From IMG/VR virus record IMGVR_UViG_2563366881_000003: a DNA stretch of 43,633 nt. The stretch is one strand, 5' to 3'. The position numbers were made by a program, and so were the translations under genes. The stretch's first letter is position 1; each line of letters begins with the position of its first letter. The notes under the pieces are model-generated. The model was not told where the DNA came from, ran no database searches, and worked only from the letters and a program-made list of their open reading frames with translations. Of this stretch, positions 1 through 38,400 are shown in pieces. This DNA is from a virus. Its lineage: Duplodnaviria > Heunggongvirae > Uroviricota > Caudoviricetes.

Positions 1-1284
1 CTACTTCTTCGCCTCTGCAACCACTTTGCTACCCACGCCGCGGTTATTGTATTCCCACATGCGGTTGTAGTTAGTGTCATTCAGATTGCGCTGTACTTCG
101 TCGTTATCATCAACGCTGCCGGTGTTACCCGCAAACGGACGATTAGAGATCACCGCATCAGCCCACGGTTTGGCTGTGTTAAAACCTTCGTTGATGGCGC
201 TATCACGGATCACTACCTGACCGTTGGTATTGGCATCAACATCCAGCGAGCGGCCCAGTTGCGCCACGCCATCACCGGAAGCATTGAAACGGCTGTTTAC
301 GGCGAGGAAACCGTAGTAAATGTTGGACAGCGTAGCCGGTGCAAACACATACGCTTCTTGCTGGGTACGGGAGTTCACCACGCGGAATTCGGTGTTATCG
401 AACACCACTGCGCCGCGACCAGAAACGATATCCACATCCCCTTCAATATAGCTGTTGGTCACCAGCGTACGCGGCTGGCGATTCGTTTCCAGACGGTTCT
501 GCACACCGCTGTTGGTGACAAAGAAGGTGTTCTGACGACCGAGAATGTTGACGTTATTGATCTGCACTTTGTCGCCATCAGTACGCAGTGCCACCGCCGG
601 ATGGTTACCCGCATCTACGCTATCGCCCAGCGTGTTTTCGATGGTCAGGTTTTGCAGTTGCAGGCCATTGTTTTGTGACCAGAAGACCGCAGAGCAGAGA
701 ACACCGATACTGTCGCTGCGTTTACTCTGGCAGCTATCGTACATATACCACGCCGGTTTACCTGGCATATATTTGCCGCGCGGGTTGACGTCGTGACGCC
801 AGTCGGCAGGGCTCATGCCACCATCAAGGGAAAGCCCAATCTTCACATCAATCGGTTTTTCACCTGTACCGTACAGAGTAATTCCACCCGGAGCGGCAGG
901 GACATACACCGTTCCCTGATACTCACCAGGCATCACGGCAATATACTGGCGCTTGTTGGTACGCTTGATAATTGCCGCATCTACCGCCGCCTGAATCGTG
1001 GTATGCGTTACACCTTGAGTACCCGCCGGGCCGACAACAAAGTCAGGTTGCGCAGGCAGGGTAATCGGGGAAGGATTCCACGCTGCCGCACCTGGTGTCA
1101 GGGATGCAAAATAGTGTTGAGCATCGAAATTCTGCGCTTCTTTTGCCGACAGAATCGGGCGCGAAGAGGTACCAGGCGCGGTTTGATCAGAAGGACGTTG
1201 ATCGGGCGGTGTTGAGCTACAGGCGGTCAGCGTCACGCCAAAAGCCAATGCCAGCGCCAGACGGGAAACTGAAAATGTGTTCAC
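1..1284 (-). CDS. ybhC: YbhC, putative acyl-CoA thioesterase / pectinesterase-like outer-membrane lipoprotein (host gene left of lambda attB)
   Basis: Full 427-aa ORF with stop at window start; N-terminal signal/lipobox (LTACSS); recalled as the E. coli gene bordering lambda attB. Confidence 0.85.
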   Translation of the reverse strand: MNTFSVSRLALALAFGVTLTACSSTPPDQRPSDQTAPGTSSRPILSAKEAQNFDAQHYFASLTPGAAAWNPSPITLPAQPDFVVGPAGTQGVTHTTIQAAVDAAIIKRTNKRQYIAVMPGEYQGTVYVPAAPGGITLYGTGEKPIDVKIGLSLDGGMSPADWRHDVNPRGKYMPGKPAWYMYDSCQSKRSDSIGVLCSAVFWSQNNGLQLQNLTIENTLGDSVDAGNHPAVALRTDGDKVQINNVNILGRQNTFFVTNSGVQNRLETNRQPRTLVTNSYIEGDVDIVSGRGAVVFDNTEFRVVNSRTQQEAYVFAPATLSNIYYGFLAVNSRFNASGDGVAQLGRSLDVDANTNGQVVIRDSAINEGFNTAKPWADAVISNRPFAGNTGSVDDNDEVQRNLNDTNYNRMWEYNNRGVGSKVVAEAKK

Positions 1285-2685: not shown

Positions 2686-2712
2686 CGCAAAGTCTCCGCA
2701 ATTACACGCAAT

Positions 2713-2733
2713 AAAAAACCGCATTGATGCGGC
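2713..2733 (-). terminator. Rho-independent terminator upstream of xis (minus strand)
   Basis: Hairpin CCGCA-tcaa-TGCGG followed by T6 on the minus strand. Confidence 0.5.
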
Positions 2734-2791
2734 GATGGTAGGTCTGGATATCTTGAGAAATGAACAGGCCTCATCGAGTGTGAGGCTGTGG

Positions 2792-3136
2792 TTAGTCCTT
2801 GCGTAACTCGCTAATTCTTCTGTAAGTCTCTGGTGCTTTGTTTCCGTGTATCTTCATTTCAGACTTCAACAGAGCAACGAGGGAATCCCATTCGTTGAGG
2901 ATGCCTTTGAATGCCGGAACGCGCTTTGCAACCTTGTCGAATGAATCTCTGATTTCTGGGATCTGCTCAACAAGTGCAACGCATCGCCGGAAGTCTGCTG
3001 CGTCATGTGGAGCGCCGAAGTGATGACCATAGATATTCTTTTTCAGTCCACATGCGATTGAGGCAAGAGTTGCGCTACTGATGCCGACATCGCCAGTCGA
3101 TTGCCATTTCAAAACCTTCATAGCCAAATCTGACAT
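2792..3136 (-). CDS. Hypothetical early-left (ea/b-region) protein, 114 aa
   Basis: ORF in the leftward operon distal to the recombination genes; no family recognised. Confidence 0.5.
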   Translation of the reverse strand: MSDLAMKVLKWQSTGDVGISSATLASIACGLKKNIYGHHFGAPHDAADFRRCVALVEQIPEIRDSFDKVAKRVPAFKGILNEWDSLVALLKSEMKIHGNKAPETYRRISELRKD

Positions 3137-3208
3137 TTCTTGTCTCCATAAAACAAAACCCGCCGTAGCGAGTTCAGATAAAAGAAATCCCCGCGAGTGC
3201 GAGGATTG

Positions 3209-3493
3209 TTATTCATTGCCGATATTCACCTTTATCGCGTACACCTTTACCGGTTTATCGCCGAAGTGAGGATGTGTGATTGTCTTGATTTCATATCCGT
3301 CATACGGGACGTCAATTCTGCGGCTGGAATCGTCGCGCTTCGGATATCCCTTTGTGATAATCAGGCGGTCATACTCCCGGAACATAATTCGCTTATTCCA
3401 GTAGTCATTACACAGGCGATACTCTTCCGTTTTCTCTCCGCGAATCATGGCATCGAAGTATTCACCTTTGACAGCAAGCTGTAGGTTAGCCAC
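3209..3493 (-). CDS. Hypothetical protein, ASCH/DUF3850-like fold suspected; start uncertain (GTG 3493 or ATG 3430)
   Basis: Motif EYFDAMIRGEKTEEYR...REYDRLIITKGY resembles small ASCH-like phage proteins; a GTG lies 7 nt after the upstream stop. Confidence 0.4.
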   Translation of the reverse strand: MANLQLAVKGEYFDAMIRGEKTEEYRLCNDYWNKRIMFREYDRLIITKGYPKRDDSSRRIDVPYDGYEIKTITHPHFGDKPVKVYAIKVNIGNE

Positions 3494-3500
3494 GGTTAAC

Positions 3501-4070
3501 CTACAGTTGTGGTGCTGCCTCAAGAGCAGCCCTGTAACCAGCAGCATGACCGCGAAAGTTAGCAATCTCTGATAGCCACGCTTTAATCATGGCCTGAGTT
3601 GGTTCCTTCGGCACCATAACCCAACCATCCGGAGTTACCGGATAGTTGCCAGCCAGCTCGTTCAACTTGTAAGTCTGGCTTACAGGTTCGGCACCATGAA
3701 GCATGGCGGCACGGCAGGCATTCCAACCATCAACATAATCAAACGTATTGCCATCGTCTGGCTCGATTTCATCCGGCACTACCGGCGCTGGTTGGGCGGT
3801 GACGTTGGAAAAGGCAGCACGCAACCCTGTCTTAATTTCCTCTACCTCATCAGCGCCTGGCGATGAATCTGACAGTGCGTGATGGAATGCGTAAGCCATG
3901 TCGTCGTTGATTTCTACAGGCACACTATCAGCTTTGCGACGCTCCTGTAGCTCGCGCAGAGCCGCTGCAACATAATGACTATTGTGCTGGTCAGCCCACA
4001 GAATGAGCCGAATCAACGTTGCATTTGAAACGTATTCGTCTGTTAGTTTGCTATTGGTAAAAATGGTCAT
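3501..4070 (-). CDS. Hypothetical phage protein, 189 aa
   Basis: ORF coupled to neighbours in the leftward operon; no family recognised. Confidence 0.5.
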   Translation of the reverse strand: MTIFTNSKLTDEYVSNATLIRLILWADQHNSHYVAAALRELQERRKADSVPVEINDDMAYAFHHALSDSSPGADEVEEIKTGLRAAFSNVTAQPAPVVPDEIEPDDGNTFDYVDGWNACRAAMLHGAEPVSQTYKLNELAGNYPVTPDGWVMVPKEPTQAMIKAWLSEIANFRGHAAGYRAALEAAPQL

Positions 4071-4582
4071 GCCGCGTTTCCTTCTTTCTTATTAACAATT
4101 ACACCGTCATATATTTCATTAAGGTGCCCTCTCAACTCCATGCGCCTTAATGCAGATAACATGTAATCGCATTCAACCTGCTTATTTCCAGTAAATGGCT
4201 TATCGTCAGGATTACCCCAACAGCAATTACCCTTGGGCCACCCATGTACTTTCCGTACTCTTCCGTTAACAACGTGAAGTAATCCCCAGCCAGGTGGTAA
4301 ATCCTCAATTGAAATAATTCCCGGCTCACTAATAAAGAATCGCCAGTCGCCCATTCCAAGAGACGGATTTTTACGAAAACGCTTTTTTCTATCTGCCAAC
4401 AAGTCAGCACGAGAACATTTCGCCTCTATCAGGCATGATGCTGAATTTCTGAATCCCATAGCATCTGGCTGTTCTCCGGTACTGGTTACAGCTATAAAGC
4501 GGTCATGAAAACAAACCTTGAACCCGTTGCGCTTAAGGAACTTGTACGCAATCTGACAGAGTTCGCGGTGTGTTAGCGCCAT
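4067..4582 (-). CDS. Putative PD-(D/E)XK-fold nuclease-like protein, 171 aa
   Basis: Candidate catalytic motif D (PDAMGF) ... E-x-K (LIEAKCSR) plus a Cys cluster; inferred by eye. Confidence 0.4.
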   Translation of the reverse strand: MALTHRELCQIAYKFLKRNGFKVCFHDRFIAVTSTGEQPDAMGFRNSASCLIEAKCSRADLLADRKKRFRKNPSLGMGDWRFFISEPGIISIEDLPPGWGLLHVVNGRVRKVHGWPKGNCCWGNPDDKPFTGNKQVECDYMLSALRRMELRGHLNEIYDGVIVNKKEGNAA

Positions 4583-5282: not shown

Positions 5283-5458
5283 GTCGCATTCAGATATCTG
5301 TTGTCGTTAACAGAACCGAAACTCTTTCTCTTAAGCAATTCCTCTCTCGATGGCATTGGCTTTACGCGTTGGCGAATAATCATTTCTGCCGGAAGAATGC
5401 CGGGATTGTATGCAAGTCCTCTCATGGTAAATTCCTCAGTCATTACTGATAGCGCCAT
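5258..5458 (-). CDS. Small hypothetical protein (66 aa; start uncertain)
   Basis: ORF in operon context only. Confidence 0.3.
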
Positions 5459-5732
5459 AGCGTGAGCGGTAATTACGCAGGCGCGGGTCGATATATTCAG
5501 GGAAGTTGGTATATGTGGCTTTGCGGAATGGTCTCATTGCTGTTTCGTTTGTTCGGTCCTTCTCCTGTTTTAGCGCGAGTTGTATATCGCGTCTAAAATT
5601 GCGCTCCGCTTTTGTTTCTGGTGTCAGAGCAAGAAACGCGTCGAAATTGTTTTTGATATTTTCCAGCACCTCCGCCTTGGAGCTACCGGAGCAGTTGCGC
5701 GGGTCATCCGCACCATACAGAGGCGCTGGCAT
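5436..5732 (-). CDS. Hypothetical phage protein, 98 aa
   Basis: ORF in operon context only. Confidence 0.4.
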
Positions 5733-5755: not shown

Positions 5756-6343
5756 TCAGAAAGGAGGGTAATCGTTCTGGCTGTAACCATAATCATCTGC
5801 ATGATTCTGGCTTACGTTTTTAGAGCGATTGTCTTTATCTTTGAGGCTGGCAACCATGTTGGCGATAGTTTCTGGTTGCTTGCCTTCTGCCTTTTCTTTA
5901 AGGGTTTGACCTGTTTGTGCAATAAACGGGATGCGTATTTCCATCTGGTAGCTGTCTGCGCCAGTCTTTTTGTTTGTGGTTAATACTTTCTGGAGCACTA
6001 ACCCGATTTTCTTTCCATGAAATTCAGGTGCAACAAATTTACTGGCGGAAACCATATGTTGTGTTAATTGTCCAATCCCGGCACACCCCATCATGGCGTG
6101 AACGACATTTGCGCCAAATTTGTTTTCCGTGCCGTCATTTTTCTGAACACAAACGCTAAGATACTGGATTTTACGTCCGTCGTCGGATTCTCCAGAAAAC
6201 TCAATAAATTTGGCTCCTTTTTCTGATTGCTTTAGTTCTGCTTCAGTAATGGTAATGATATGAGCGCCAGTTTCGTTAATAAAACCACCTTGCCCTGCGG
6301 TCAGTGCTGCTTCTTCGTTATAAGTAAAAATCACGTTGCTCAT
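5756..6343 (-). CDS. DUF669-type phage ssDNA-binding protein (Sak4-associated)
   Basis: 195 aa, immediately downstream of and overlapping the Sak4-like ATPase gene; a typical pairing. Confidence 0.6.
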   Translation of the reverse strand: MSNVIFTYNEEAALTAGQGGFINETGAHIITITEAELKQSEKGAKFIEFSGESDDGRKIQYLSVCVQKNDGTENKFGANVVHAMMGCAGIGQLTQHMVSASKFVAPEFHGKKIGLVLQKVLTTNKKTGADSYQMEIRIPFIAQTGQTLKEKAEGKQPETIANMVASLKDKDNRSKNVSQNHADDYGYSQNDYPPF

Positions 6344-7020
6344 GCGGCGTTTTCCTTAATTTGATGAACATTATTGATGCCGTAGTAATCACAAACAGTG
6401 GCATCGACGAAAGAGAGATCGTTATCAATCTCATTGGAATCAAACATTCCCATTGGGGATTTAACTGTGTCTGCACCGTTGTTTTTTGTGGTGAAAAAGA
6501 ACTGGTCATCACGGGTAAGGGTGCGAAGAACTATAGTAAACATGCCTTCGACAGTGATTTTCTCGTCCAGCATTTTGCCGATAGTTTTCATTTTCACGCG
6601 CCCAATAGGGGTTTCTTCGGTGTGCGCAAGAAAATAGACTCTCAGGTCATCAGGTGCATCCTGTGCAGCCTTAATCACCTCCCATGCGTGGCGTCCTATC
6701 TCAGTAAATTTATCAAATGATTTCTCTTCTGAGCGGCGCATAAACTCATTGCTCATCACATACTGGAAGTCATCAACAATAACGATTCTTTTCCCGTATT
6801 CGTGAGCACGCTTAATTACGGCAACTATTACGTCCCATTTGTCAGTGGTAACTACGGTTCCTTTTTTTGCTCTGGCATCCCATGCAAGCCAGTCTTTTGA
6901 TTTAAATGGTAGCGGCTTGCCTATTGGTTTTATAAGTATTGCTTCCTCTGGATTGATATTTCTCATGCTGGTTGATTTTCCGGTGCCAGACTCACCGAGT
7001 ATTAATGTCGCAGTTCCCAT
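6340..7020 (-). CDS. Sak4-like RecA-fold ATPase (phage recombination)
   Basis: Walker A GESGTGKS at the N-terminus, Walker B-like IVIVDD; 226 aa. Confidence 0.7.
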   Translation of the reverse strand: MGTATLILGESGTGKSTSMRNINPEEAILIKPIGKPLPFKSKDWLAWDARAKKGTVVTTDKWDVIVAVIKRAHEYGKRIVIVDDFQYVMSNEFMRRSEEKSFDKFTEIGRHAWEVIKAAQDAPDDLRVYFLAHTEETPIGRVKMKTIGKMLDEKITVEGMFTIVLRTLTRDDQFFFTTKNNGADTVKSPMGMFDSNEIDNDLSFVDATVCDYYGINNVHQIKENAA

Positions 7021-7028
7021 AATTCACC

Positions 7029-7229
7029 TCAGAATGGTAATTCGGATGGGGAGGAAAGAAACTCTCGCTCATTCATGCGCTCTCTTTGCGCCTGCCATAA
7101 ACAAAGTTGTTTCTTTGATTTATCTCCCGCTTTACGCCAGTAACGAGCCTCAGCAATGTGATATTCTCTTTTTAATCGACTTAACTCTGGAGTTTTCGCT
7201 AGTTCTACCGGAATCATTTTGACCTCCAT
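7029..7229 (-). CDS. Small hypothetical protein, 66 aa
   Basis: ORF only. Confidence 0.35.
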   Translation of the reverse strand: MEVKMIPVELAKTPELSRLKREYHIAEARYWRKAGDKSKKQLCLWQAQRERMNEREFLSSPSELPF

Positions 7230-7453
7230 TTTCGGTAGGCTTCTACGGCTTCACGAAACATCTTTTCATCGCCAATAAAAGTGGCGATAGTGAATTTAGT
7301 CTGGATAGCCATAAGTGTTTTATCCATTTTGGGGAACTCCTGGCTGATTAAGTACGTCGATGAGTCGTTTCCATCCGTCACGTAATTTACGTGTGATTCG
7401 CTCAAGTAAAGATTCGGAAGGGCAGCCAGCAACAGGCCACCCTGCAATGGCAT
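7214..7453 (-). CDS. Small hypothetical protein (79 aa, or 37 aa from internal ATG at 7327)
   Basis: ORF; internal ATG has a GGAG 9 nt upstream. Confidence 0.3.
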   Translation of the reverse strand: MPLQGGLLLAALPNLYLSESHVNYVTDGNDSSTYLISQEFPKMDKTLMAIQTKFTIATFIGDEKMFREAVEAYRKWRSK

Positions 7454-7541
7454 ATTGCATGGTGTGCTCCTTATTCATTTACACTTGAAATTGCTCCGTG
7501 TATTCACTCGTTGGAATGAATACACAGTGCTTATTCGCAGC

Positions 7542-9241: not shown

Positions 9242-9775
9242 TTACTGGCTCCGTCCATGATTTTCATGAAAGCCATATAGTGCATTGGCTTCTTTCCTTG
9301 CTTGTTTGGCATCATCTAAAAGTTTGAATGAGCCTAGGTATTTTCGTTTTCCATCCACAGTTATCGATGCAACATAAAACCCATGCTCTTTTCTTTCTTC
9401 AACACCTGTAACTCCAGTTGATGAAGATGATTTTAAAGGCATGTTTTTCATATTCTCTTTGAAAGAAACGCTTCTTAAATTGGAGATTCTGTTGTCATCC
9501 TTAACGCCGTTTATGTGATCAATCACATCAGGCCAGTAGCCATGCACGTAAAGCCATGCAAGTCTGTGAGACTTAAATTTTTTACCTCCAATATTTATTC
9601 TCAGATAACCCTTGTTGTCAGGTGAGCCAGCCTTTTTACCTGGATACTTCTTGTTCCACGTCAAGGCAGCTCTGTTATCCGCAAACAAATGCTTTGCTCT
9701 CGGCTTCCAATAAAAGTCACCACTCACAGGATTGTAATGAAGAATCTCCCTTACAGACACTTGAGTAAGATCCAC
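9242..9775 (-). CDS. HNH endonuclease with AP2-like DNA-binding domain (paralog 1)
   Basis: Motif HRLAWLYVHG...IDHINGVKDDNRISNLR, C-terminal GV(T/S)... AP2-like segment; paralogous to three other ORFs in the window. Confidence 0.8.
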   Translation of the reverse strand: MDLTQVSVREILHYNPVSGDFYWKPRAKHLFADNRAALTWNKKYPGKKAGSPDNKGYLRINIGGKKFKSHRLAWLYVHGYWPDVIDHINGVKDDNRISNLRSVSFKENMKNMPLKSSSSTGVTGVEERKEHGFYVASITVDGKRKYLGSFKLLDDAKQARKEANALYGFHENHGRSQ

Positions 9776-10017
9776 TTAAACCTCCTAACAAAAACACTTC
9801 AATAACCCTCCGGTTATGGAAATGTTCTTTTGTAGTGAGCAGCATTGCCGTTCATCCTGAACCCGCCGCGCTCCCGACGCATGGTTTAAAGACGCGCCGT
9901 TCGTCTATGGGCTTATGATGTACTTAAAGTTCATTAATGTAAAGTACAAATAGTACATTTTATGGGTATAAAAAGCTCACTACATCATAAGTTAGTGAAC
10001 TTTAAGGAAATTTATTT

Positions 10018-10725
10018 TTATCCGAATCGCTTGTAATCGATTGACTGCCTAATGAGGACTTTGGCTAGAATGTGAAGTTGCTCTTCTTCACCTTCTTCTA
10101 TGTACCATCGATCATAAGCGGCATTGTCAGAGATGACGGCAAGCCTGTTCTTTTGCATTTGCAGGCGCTTAACGTGCATTGTTTTCCCGTATACAAACAC
10201 ATAAATGCCATCGCCATCAAAATAGGTTATGGATACATCAACAAAGATCTCATCTCCCGGATTGATGGTTCCCTCCATGCTGTCACCGCGAACCGTGATG
10301 ACTTTTACGCTTTCCTGTGGCCTTCCATTAAATAAAATTCTTGCCTGCTCGGGCGTATATTCAATTGCTCTTATCTTTTCTATAAATTCATTGGAAACCA
10401 TGGTTCCTGGCCCGGCGCTCGCCTGAACATCCAATACATCAACACGATAAGAATCATTTGATCTTGATAGATGATTTACCGTGATACCGTCATAATCAGC
10501 ATAGCCATGCAGATATGCAGCAGTAGTTCCCAGCACCGAAGCCAGAGATTCCATCTTGTCTTTTCTTGGTATTGACTCCCCGTTGAACCATTTACTAATG
10601 GCTTTTGGTGTGACCTTAAGCCTGACAGCTAAATCAGCCTGCCTACCATGCAAAGGTAATCCCGCTTTATCACAGGCCAGCGCAAGCCTCTGCGAGAAAG
10701 TTTCACGCTCTTTCTGTTGAACCAT
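10018..10725 (-). CDS. cI: CI-type prophage repressor (HTH plus S24 LexA-like peptidase domain)
   Basis: C-terminal GDSMEGTINPGDEIFVD ... HVKRL (Ser/Lys dyad); start at MVQQKE (ATG 10725) lies inside an operator palindrome with no SD, consistent with a leaderless transcript. Confidence 0.8.
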   Translation of the reverse strand: MVQQKERETFSQRLALACDKAGLPLHGRQADLAVRLKVTPKAISKWFNGESIPRKDKMESLASVLGTTAAYLHGYADYDGITVNHLSRSNDSYRVDVLDVQASAGPGTMVSNEFIEKIRAIEYTPEQARILFNGRPQESVKVITVRGDSMEGTINPGDEIFVDVSITYFDGDGIYVFVYGKTMHVKRLQMQKNRLAVISDNAAYDRWYIEEGEEEQLHILAKVLIRQSIDYKRFG

Positions 10726-14614: not shown

Positions 14615-15025
14615 GTGAAGCAAACAATCTTCCTCAGAACTAAGCAACAACAGTAAGCCGCAATCAACGCCATCCTCGCAACACCACTCGATAAAGACAA
14701 GCCAGTCACCATCCGCATTACTGACTACAAGCGCAACCTTGACCAGAACGCAAAATTTCACGCGATGGTCGCAGATATCGCCAGGCAAGTTCAGTGGCGC
14801 GATAAATGGTTAAAACCAGAACAATGGAAGGTTTTGTTGATAAGCGGTCATGCAGTGGCAACAAAGCAGGAAGCTGATGTTTTGCCCGGGCTTGAAGGCG
14901 AATACGTCAACATTCGCGAAAGCAGCGCGCAGATGAGTGTGAAGCGTATGGCAAGTCTGATTGAGTACACGACAGCATGGGCTATTGGTCAGGGTGTCAG
15001 ATTTACCGACAGGAGGTACGAATGA
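14615..15025 (+). pseudogene. ninB: ninB (recombination protein NinB/Orf) interrupted by an in-frame TAA at 14654-14656
   Basis: GTG 14615 with AGGAG upstream encodes MKQTIFLRTKQQQ, then TAA, then the same frame continues AAINAILATPLDKDK...NLDQNAKFHAMVADIARQVQWRDKWL matching recalled lambda NinB across the stop; codons checked by hand. Confidence 0.7.
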
Positions 15026-15744: not shown

Positions 15745-16459
15745 GTTAATAAATGGCAATGCCATCAAAATGACAAGCATTGAAATCGCTGAGTTGGTTG
15801 GTAAGCGTCATGACAATGTGAAACGTACCATCGAAACGCTGGCTAAAAATGGTGTTATCCGGCTTCCTCAAATTGAGGTTTCCGAAAGAATCAATAACTT
15901 AGGGTTCAATGTTCAGTACGAGTATTACGTCTTCGAAGGCGAACAAGGAAAGCGAGACAGTATTGTCGTTGTAGCCCAGTTGTCGCCGGAATTCACCGCT
16001 CGTCTTGTTGACCGTTGGCGAGAGCTTGAAGAAGCTGCGGTTAATATCCCCAAAACGCTACCAGAAGCGTTGCGCCTTGCTGCTGATCTTGCTGAGCAGA
16101 AAATGCAACTGGAAAACCAGCTCGCAATTGCCGCACCTAAAGTTGAGTTTGCCGATCGCGTTGGCGAGGCCAGCGGAATTTTGATTGGAAACTTTGCAAA
16201 GGTTGTTGGAATTGGTCCAAACAAACTGTTTGCGTGGATGCGCGATCACAAAATCCTTATTGCTTCAGGTTCCCGGCGCAATGTGCCAATGCAGGAATAT
16301 ATGGATCGCGGCTATTTCACAGTGAAAGAAACAGCGGTCAACACAAATCACGGGATACAGATATCGTTCACCACAAAAATCACCGGGCGTGGTCAACAGT
16401 GGCTGACCAGAAAGCTGCTCGATAACGGAATGCTGAAAGTAACAGGGGAGGCTGCTTAA
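15737..16459 (+). CDS. Rha-family phage regulatory protein / antirepressor-like (KilAC-type C-terminal domain)
   Basis: N-terminal motif SIEIAELVGKRHDNVKRTIETL typical of Rha; 240 aa. Confidence 0.65.
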   Translation: MNELINGNAIKMTSIEIAELVGKRHDNVKRTIETLAKNGVIRLPQIEVSERINNLGFNVQYEYYVFEGEQGKRDSIVVVAQLSPEFTARLVDRWRELEEAAVNIPKTLPEALRLAADLAEQKMQLENQLAIAAPKVEFADRVGEASGILIGNFAKVVGIGPNKLFAWMRDHKILIASGSRRNVPMQEYMDRGYFTVKETAVNTNHGIQISFTTKITGRGQQWLTRKLLDNGMLKVTGEAA

Positions 16460-16749
16460 TGGCTAATCTACGCAAAGAAGCACGCGGCAGAGAATGCCAG
16501 GTACGTATTTACGGCGTATGCAATGGCAATCCTGAAACTACAGTTCTGGCACATTACCGGATGGCTGGAATTTGCGGAACGGGAATGAAGCCTGACGACC
16601 TGATCGGCGCATGGGCTTGTAGCGCGTGTCACGATGAAATCGACCGACGCACCTATAATCTCGACAACAAAGACGCCAGACTTTACCACCTCGAAGGCGT
16701 GATCAGGACGCAGGCGATACTGCTGAAGGAGGGGAAGATTAAGTCATGA
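16459..16749 (+). CDS. DUF1364 / YbcO-like putative zinc-binding nuclease
   Basis: 96 aa, motif ARGRECQVRIYGVCNGNPETTVLAH...CSACHDEIDRR recalled from DLP12 YbcO. Confidence 0.6.
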   Translation: MANLRKEARGRECQVRIYGVCNGNPETTVLAHYRMAGICGTGMKPDDLIGAWACSACHDEIDRRTYNLDNKDARLYHLEGVIRTQAILLKEGKIKS

Positions 16750-17270
16750 ACGGTAAAAGATATCCAACACAAAAAGAAATCAATGAATTGTATGAATATA
16801 ATAGCGAAACAGGTTTGTTTATATACAAGAGAAGAGAAAGTGTAAGAGAGTGCTGGAATTCAACATATGCCGGTAAGATTGCTGGTTCTATAGATGAAAA
16901 AGGATACGTTCGTATATCTGTAAATAAAAAAGTTTGTCGAGCTCATAGAATCGCATGGATATCCTTTTATGGAAGTGAACCTGATGGGGAAATTGACCAC
17001 ATAAATGGAGTTAAAAGCGATAACAGAATATGCAATTTGCGCGTTGTAGATGATAAACAGAACTCAAGGAACAGAAAAAAGCCTATTAATAATCGCTCTG
17101 GAGTAATGGGGGTTGCCTACTATAAGAAGAATAAAAAGTGGGGCGCATATATAAACAGTGATAATAAAAAGATATTTCTTGGATTATACGATGACATATC
17201 TCTAGCCGTTAATGCCAGAAAATTGGCGGAATCACGATTGGGGTATCACCATAATCATGGGAGAGGATAA
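16746..17270 (+). CDS. HNH endonuclease with AP2-like domain (paralog 2)
   Basis: HRIAWISFYG...IDHINGVKSDNRICNLR; inserted between the ybcO-like gene and rusA. Confidence 0.8.
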   Translation: MNGKRYPTQKEINELYEYNSETGLFIYKRRESVRECWNSTYAGKIAGSIDEKGYVRISVNKKVCRAHRIAWISFYGSEPDGEIDHINGVKSDNRICNLRVVDDKQNSRNRKKPINNRSGVMGVAYYKKNKKWGAYINSDNKKIFLGLYDDISLAVNARKLAESRLGYHHNHGRG

Positions 17271-38323: not shown

Positions 38324-38324
38324 A

Positions 38325-38400
38325 GTTGAAGCCCCAACTGCGGGAACAGTCAGGGCTTCTGTTGTCAGTAAATCCGTGGAGAAAAACCAACATGAATAGT
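38325..38400 (-). ncRNA. sar-like antisense RNA covering the ant ribosome-binding region (candidate)
   Basis: Arc-ant intercistronic hairpin GAAGCCC...GGGCTTC at 38330-38361; P22 has sar here. Confidence 0.35.

Follow-up and report, generated by a model that had tools for sequence, protein, structure and literature searches.

The sak4–ssb gene pair of a mosaic P22-like/lambdoid phage is very probably an HK620-type homologous-recombination module

The 43,633-nucleotide (nt) stretch of Caudoviricetes DNA represented by IMG/VR virus record IMGVR_UViG_2563366881_000003 (the window, meaning hereafter this stretch at its full length) carries a pair of overlapping genes, sak4 and ssb, which code for a RecA/Rad51-like ATPase and a single-stranded DNA (ssDNA)-binding protein (SSB), respectively. 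Very probably (at a probability of roughly 0.93), these genes belong to a homologous-recombination module of the type known from phage HK620, here residing in a mosaic P22-like/lambdoid Escherichia coli phage, a reading that is preferred because the two products are identical to experimentally characterised proteins at 224/226 and 194/195 residues, because the biochemistry of the latter is published, because the gene overlap is conserved and an abc2 gene is present, and because no other single-strand annealing protein (SSAP), exonuclease or Gam is encoded in the window. The pair matters little as a discovery in itself, since it corresponds, with 99% identity, to the known Sak4/SSB system of HK620, which has been published and characterised by experiment. 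Its features are the following:

6340..7020, minus strand: sak4 (hkaL-type), encoding a 226-aa core-only RecA/Rad51-like ATPase, a predicted ATP-dependent single-strand annealing protein (protein start MGTATLILGESGTGKS, Walker A motif GESGTGKS)
5756..6343, minus strand: ssb (hkaK-type, "SSB-2"), encoding a 195-aa predicted ssDNA-binding protein, probably of the oligonucleotide/oligosaccharide-binding (OB) fold, which ends in the tip NDYPPF and is the cognate partner of Sak4
6340..6343, minus strand: overlap of the sak4 stop with the ssb start (ATGA, 4 nt, within ...GCCGCATGAGC...), the site of probable translational coupling

A preliminary description of this DNA had reported a Walker-A ATPase (GESGTGKS) translationally overlapping a 195-aa protein, and both open reading frames (ORFs) do lie exactly where it had placed them and share the ATGA, on the minus strand, which it had left unspecified. 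That these ORFs are not due to chance is evident from their PHROG E-values (1.3e-107 and 1.8e-66, respectively) and from thousands of homologues (7979 for the 226-aa ORF and 147 for the 195-aa one at E ≤ 1e-3), and an exhaustive profile search with the SSB returned 670 representatives of clusters at 50% identity. The ssb ATG has AAGGA 11 nt upstream, the sak4 ATG has GAGGTGA in front of it, and the stop codon of the preceding hkaM gene lies 8 nt before the latter; together, the 4-nt overlap and the 8-nt gap indicate a tightly packed, probably translationally coupled gene string. HK620 and the distant loci L005, L007 and L009 share this 4-nt overlap, which is retained in enterobacterial loci whose Sak4 and SSB are 52–82% and 62–68% identical to the window proteins, respectively; in Lactobacillus phage Lc-Nu, too, the two genes are neighbours, one of them an AAA_24 and the other a DUF669 gene. 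A scan for sigma-70-like promoters found none before sak4, and fewer sites than in shuffled sequence, which is consistent with sak4 being expressed from the distant pL only.

The designation of the ATPase as Sak4-like withstood the hidden Markov model (HMM) searches proposed for checking it, as the 226-aa protein matches PHROG 2872 ("Sak4-like ssDNA annealing protein") over the full length (1–220 of 219) and Pfam AAA_24 (PF13479) at 30.2 bits, just over the curated cut-off of 27. Its Walker A (G9-E-S-G-T-G-K15-S) and Walker B (I-V-I-V-D83-D84) motifs are conserved to the extent that none of the residues G9, S11, G12, G14, K15, D83 and D84 varies among 25 diverse homologues, the most distant of which is 54% identical. 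The protein has the RecA/Rad51 core fold, with neither N- nor C-terminal DNA-binding domains, and its gene adjoins ssb, as expected for the Sak4 family, in which an SSB-like gene is adjacent to about 80% of the sak4 genes (PMC5928155). The best structural match is a solved Sak4 (180 residues aligned), followed by the RAD51 paralogues RAD51D, RAD51C, XRCC3 and XRCC2 and by RadB. PDB sequence searches with single proteins and profiles (Sak4, SSB and DUF669) gave no informative match and found neither PrgE nor 8rc5.

Most of what can be said about function comes from HK620, whose HkaL and HkaK are the very proteins purified and studied by Hutinet et al. in 2018 (PMC5928155). The HK620 module hkaM-hkaL(sak4)-hkaK(ssb)-hkaJ(abc2) (AF335538) has the same gene order and the same 4-nt overlap as the window and occupies the same place between kil and the ea genes, and the near-complete identity given above extends through the NDYPPF tip of the SSB (99.5% identical to HK620 hkaK by tblastn against phage genomes). 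HK620 Sak4 shows ATP-dependent ssDNA binding and annealing of complementary strands, and SSB-HK620 is a genuine SSB with an apparent mass of ~95 kDa (tetramer-like), which forms two shifted complexes and binds ssDNA ~4-fold more weakly than E. coli SSB (PMC5928155). Relative to background, recombineering was 15-fold higher with sak4 as the only gene and 210-fold higher with sak4 and ssb together; removal of the last six SSB residues lowered it 10-fold and turned the stimulation of annealing in vitro into inhibition, and neither abc2 nor hkaM raised it (PMC5928155). A recombineering assay with the cloned pair, which had been suggested for the window genes, is therefore already in print for a pair that is 99% identical. 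With 2 of its 226 residues differing, the window Sak4 is supported, by this similarity of sequence, as a predicted ATP-dependent ssDNA binder and annealase like HK620 Sak4.

The module would then be expected to work as follows. Abc2 would reprogramme the host RecBCD so that DNA ends are turned into recombinogenic 3' ssDNA instead of being destroyed, and the RecBCD-derived ssDNA would be coated by the SSB, a predicted tetramer, whose last six residues (NDYPPF) would recruit Sak4 and stimulate annealing. Sak4, in turn, would bind ssDNA and, with ATP, anneal the SSB-coated strand to complementary ssDNA, e.g., at replication forks or other resected ends (the experimental basis for ssDNA coating, recruitment and annealing as such being the 99%-identical proteins). 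Such annealing would support concatemer formation or recombination-dependent replication, repair, and lambdoid mosaic exchange.

The 195-aa protein had been presented as a DUF669 SSB-like partner, of which the SSB-like part stands on the match to PHROG 743 ("single strand DNA binding protein", the E-value of 1.8e-66 given above), whereas the DUF669 part holds as a remote relationship and not as a match to the current Pfam model. No Pfam or NCBIfam family, DUF669 and SSB included, matched the protein even at E ≤ 10, the canonical SSB family (PF00436) thus being among those without a match, and no PDB sequence match was obtained with the single protein or with its profile. The Pfam DUF669 HMM (PF05037, gathering threshold of 21 bits) produced sub-threshold matches to 6 of 26 close SSB homologues (best E 0.019) and to 0 of 50 diverse ones (27–50% identity, drawn from the exhaustive profile search) at E ≤ 0.01, and Lc-Nu ORF30, which served as the positive control and lies beside the Sak4 ORF29 of that phage (AAA_24, 134.6 bits), scored 44 bits. 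An hhalign comparison of a 50-sequence profile of the HK620-type SSB family with a 29-sequence DUF669 profile built from Lc-Nu ORF30 homologues, however, gave a probability of 95.7% (E 8.7e-9, 124 columns, DUF669 positions 2–131), although a shallow SSB profile had reached a probability of only 16.7%. Comparisons of the HK620-type proteins with Lc-Nu ORF29/ORF30 made pairwise or between a profile and a single sequence are too weak to inform. Given a profile–profile match but no Pfam match, the SSB is best regarded as a remote relative of DUF669 and not as a member by the Pfam criterion, even though the NCBI and UniRef product names for its family read "DUF669 domain-containing" and HkaK was equated with DUF669 by Hutinet et al. 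(PMC5928155).

The window pair is set apart from the Sak4 and DUF669 pairs of Gram-positive phages (e.g., Lc-Nu ORF29/ORF30; the staphylococcal Sak4 of PDB 8rc5), pairwise similarity to which is essentially undetectable: Lc-Nu ORF30 passes the DUF669 threshold and the window SSB does not, and the AAA_24 score of Lc-Nu ORF29 (134.6 bits) compares with 30 bits for the window Sak4. What is common to the window SSB and DUF669 is an acidic tail with an aromatic end, as the former ends in ...DDYGYSQNDYPPF, F195 being invariant and the homologue tail being acidic with the consensus DDxxxPF, and the aligned DUF669 members end in DDDLPF. The predicted structure of the SSB (pLDDT, the predicted local distance difference test score, of 78.7) comprises a beta-barrel with an inserted helix and a disordered tail (177–195), and Foldseek returned PrgE as the best fold match (probability 1.00) and Bacillus subtilis SsbA at a probability of 0.90. 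The model thus favours an OB-fold-like protein, which may or may not be akin to canonical SSB. PrgE of plasmid pCF10 (PDB 8s4s/8s4t) has no detectable sequence relation to the window SSB, being missed by PDB searches with both the SSB and DUF669 profiles, and, unlike SSB-HK620, which is tetramer-like and similar to E. coli SSB, it uses an N-terminal tail to form filaments and binds both double-stranded DNA and ssDNA (PMC11137577). SSB-2, DUF669 and PrgE may nevertheless belong to one superfamily of mobile-element OB-fold proteins.

The genes flanking the pair are as follows:

7029..7217, minus strand: hkaM, a 62-aa protein of unknown function (PHROG 1723, 2e-33; 61/62 identical to HK620 HkaM) in the "arf" position, its start overlapping the kil stop (ATGA)
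5436..5732, minus strand: abc2, P22-type anti-RecBCD (Pfam Anti-RecBCD_p2, PF11043, 1.3e-38; PHROG 656, 4.7e-46; 64% identical to P22 Abc2 by tblastn), 23 nt downstream of ssb

P22 (arf-erf-abc1-abc2) and lambda (gam-bet-exo) carry their recombination genes at the same place of the operon, downstream of cIII/kil, and with the same job, i.e., an SSAP and the handling of RecBCD. The SSAP of the window, however, is a RecA-fold ATPase that needs ATP and a dedicated SSB, whereas P22 Erf and lambda Beta have the Rad52 fold, and the window, unlike lambda, has neither an exonuclease nor Gam, with arf, erf and abc1 being absent as well. Searching the window by tblastn with lambda exo/bet/gam, P22 arf/erf/abc1, the GamL/RecT/YqaJ set, a Rad52-like SSAP and a canonical phage SSB yielded none of them. 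The earlier proposal that the pair replaces lambda exo/bet/gam or P22 erf/abc is hence right as far as exo/bet/gam are absent and the arf, erf and abc1 positions are taken by other genes, but a P22-type abc2, which the window shares with P22, is kept directly downstream of ssb, so the "abc" function has not been replaced.

The pair is widespread, its 1265 bp recurring in 395 phage records, which include many Stx1a/Stx2a (Shiga toxin)-converting phages, and among 5426 complete E. coli genomes, 303 have a match to it and 179 (~3%) have at least 80% of it covered. In 80 IMG/VR loci with a near-identical HkaM, Sak4, SSB and Abc2 are encoded in 63, and a Rad52-like SSAP, a canonical SSB and Abc2 in 14, from which it follows that hkaM and abc2 enclose what behaves as an exchangeable cassette of recombinase and SSB, as fits the catalogue of lambdoid Rec-module types (PMC12315714). 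The 14 alternative loci (L017, L046, L041 and 11 more, at ~2698–4400 in locus coordinates) have a 235-aa Rad52-like SSAP, whose last 30 residues resemble the P22 Erf C-terminus, and a canonical SSB (DDDIPF) between the same HkaM/Abc2 flanks, some of them with insertions of HNH or 3'-5' exonuclease-like genes.

Exchangeability also bears on what the SSB does, as an allele 86–87% identical to it follows GamL-RecT-YqaJ exonuclease genes, with no Sak4, in Stx phage P13374 (L002, 1567–4088) and in an E. coli contig (L004, 1579–4088), this RecT-paired allele being present in 62 phage records. The 195-aa protein could accordingly be a general-purpose phage SSB, serving replication or ssDNA protection and exchangeable between recombinase cassettes, with the stimulation of Sak4 as one partnership of several, and the variety of tips in Sak4-paired homologues (YPPF, FEQF, DIDF and NQDF) is what a generic acidic/aromatic hub would be expected to show. 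We consider this unlikely, since in the loci examined ssb always lies within a recombination module, translationally coupled to an SSAP or exonuclease gene and not placed with the replication genes O/P, and since it is specifically the loading of Sak4 that is lost when the tail is deleted (PMC5928155). The tips of the RecT-paired SSBs are SDSF or YDQF, and a co-variation of tip with partner (PF with Sak4, non-PF with RecT) was considered and rejected, as Sak4-paired homologues also end in FEQF, DIDF or NQDF.

Nothing contradicts the assignment to an HK620-type module, but it has certain limits. The occurrence of an 87% identical SSB with GamL-RecT-YqaJ means that this type of SSB does not serve Sak4 exclusively; the window Abc2 is identical to HK620 Abc2 at only 64 of 98 positions, and its interplay with the sak4–ssb pair is assumed. 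The window proteins differ from those tested at three positions (D43/E and I139/M in Sak4, E153/V in SSB), all of which are variable among homologues. In the HK620 study, the level of recombination reached in vivo with Sak4 and SSB was only low, and strand exchange did not occur in vitro (PMC5928155).

A further alternative is that the main role of Sak4 in vivo is not that of a stand-alone annealase but that of a mediator or accessory of the host RecA, helping the presynaptic filament in the manner of a Rad51 paralogue, with the SSB as a hand-off platform. In its favour, the RAD51 paralogues and RadB are the closest folds after Sak4 itself, SSB-HK620 stimulates RecA strand exchange, and Hutinet et al. 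2018 discuss the analogy to paralogues (PMC5928155). Sak4, however, did not stimulate RecA strand exchange in vitro, and its recombineering activity does not require RecA, being no higher in a RecA+ than in a recA background (PMC5928155), which makes the mediator role distinctly improbable. A merely superficial match to Sak4, with the 226-aa protein belonging among unrelated P-loop NTPases (e.g., AAA_22-type loaders, kinases or packaging ATPases), is hardly conceivable in view of the 99% identity of this protein to a purified annealase, its PHROG 2872 match (1e-107) and a solved Sak4 as its best structural match, and the assignment to unrelated ATPase families that the preliminary description had named as grounds for refutation was not the outcome, the family assigned being the Sak4-like PHROG 2872.

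As to HkaM, its C-terminus (...PSELPF) resembles SSB tips (DDDIPF in E. coli, NDYPPF in SSB-HK620 and DDDLPF in DUF669). Because of this resemblance, and because HkaM stays with either downstream cassette, it may be imagined as an SSB-tail mimic that would compete for, or redirect, the SSB-tip pockets of host RecO, ExoI or PriA, or of the phage SSAP, an idea drawn from sequence that we hold to be rather unlikely. P22 Arf is unrelated to HkaM and has no such tip, and an IMG/VR scan for diverse homologues, in which conservation of the ELPF tip could be assessed, returned only copies that are 97–100% identical. A Salmonella HkaM homologue (68% identical) has the same C-terminal end, and an ORF at the HkaM position in L005 (31% identical) ends in CPF. 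The PHROG 1723 label for the HkaM family is "recombinase", without an evident basis.

Further upstream in the same leftward operon lie the following features:

7214..7327, minus strand: kil (lambda type; Pfam Lambda_Kil, 5.8e-21; 91% identical to lambda Kil over 7327–7226)
7415..7473, minus strand: lambda cIII thermoregulator RNA at the 5' end of cIII, intact (Rfam RF01804, 88.5 bits against a gathering score of 50)
9833..10017, minus strand: HK022-type OL/pL/putL (window 9833–10100 shares 99.3% identity with HK022 and phage O276, annotated there as cI, oL, promoter and "putL: antiterminator RNA")

The operon starts, on the minus strand, with the HK022-type cI/OL/pL/putL, an HNH endonuclease gene at the nun/N position, sieB (on the opposite strand) and two ORFs of unknown function, and proceeds through cIII, kil, hkaM, sak4, ssb, abc2, an ead/Ea22-like gene and further ea genes to xis and int. 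The window differs in this from HK620, which has N and nutL, by its HK022-type immunity/pL/putL, its HNH gene at the nun/N position and the absence of N, no N-like ORF having been found in it. Between pL and the sak4–ssb module lies a terminator-like hairpin (7916–7899, minus strand), and the operon would probably be expressed from the HK022-type pL, with putL RNA antitermination reading through this hairpin. The window as a whole is that of a mosaic P22-like phage or prophage, its structural half being like HK620 and Sf6 and its early half like HK629, JEP4 and HK97. A 79-aa "kil" listed among the ORFs is extended too far, kil actually starting at 7327, and cIII (7299–7478, minus strand) is 94% identical to lambda cIII but has an early stop, as annotated for HK620.

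The HNH gene at the nun/N position (9242–9775, minus strand) is 97.9% identical to a gene of Salmonella phage UPF_BP1 and is one of three paralogues (PHROG 99, ~42% mutual identity), the others lying at 16746–17270 and 18528–19040 (both on the plus strand), so that the early-left, nin and Q-downstream regions have one each; a fourth, small HNH-like ORF (PHROG 131) is at 16459–16749. The three HNH genes look like homing-endonuclease insertions, which would go some way towards accounting for the greater length of the window compared with related phages (38–40 kb). Other recombination-related genes in the window are a RusA-like resolvase gene and the ninB/orf recombination-mediator gene (14615–15025, plus strand). 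The latter has an in-frame TAA (14654–14656) after ~13 codons, a P22 NinB tblastn alignment running straight across it (36% identity over 14618–15010), and its ATG-initiated remnant (14765–15025) comprises only the C-terminal 86 aa; ninB/orf is possibly a pseudogene. Enrichment in Chi sites (cf. PMC12315714) was considered and rejected, as a single GCTGGTGG in 43.6 kb against 1.2 expected is nothing unusual. Late in the genome, a sar antisense RNA of the P22 type (RF00262, 92.3 bits; 38324–38391, minus strand) points to an immI (ant/arc/mnt-like) region, and at the left edge a 427-aa ORF (1–1284, minus strand), which lies beyond int and runs to the end of the window, gives an end-to-end match to PHROG 12036 (unknown function; 1019 bits) and may be a lysogenic-conversion or moron gene.

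The use of recognising the HK620-type module lies partly in annotation, as many records label the pair "ATP-binding protein", "hypothetical protein", "DUF669" or even "recombinase", and the enterobacterial branch goes undetected by the DUF669 model of the current Pfam. A single SSB-2/DUF669/PrgE superfamily, if real, would settle a point on which the literature disagrees, namely whether HkaK is homologous to SSBs, and an SSB-mimicking HkaM, if true, would add an extra regulatory layer to an otherwise well-known module. Sak4/SSB pairs are also candidate recombineering tools, and satellites and defence systems are known to target the recombinases and SSBs of phages (PMC11846896). Being common in E. 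coli and Stx phages, the module probably contributes to the mosaicism of Shiga-toxin phages.
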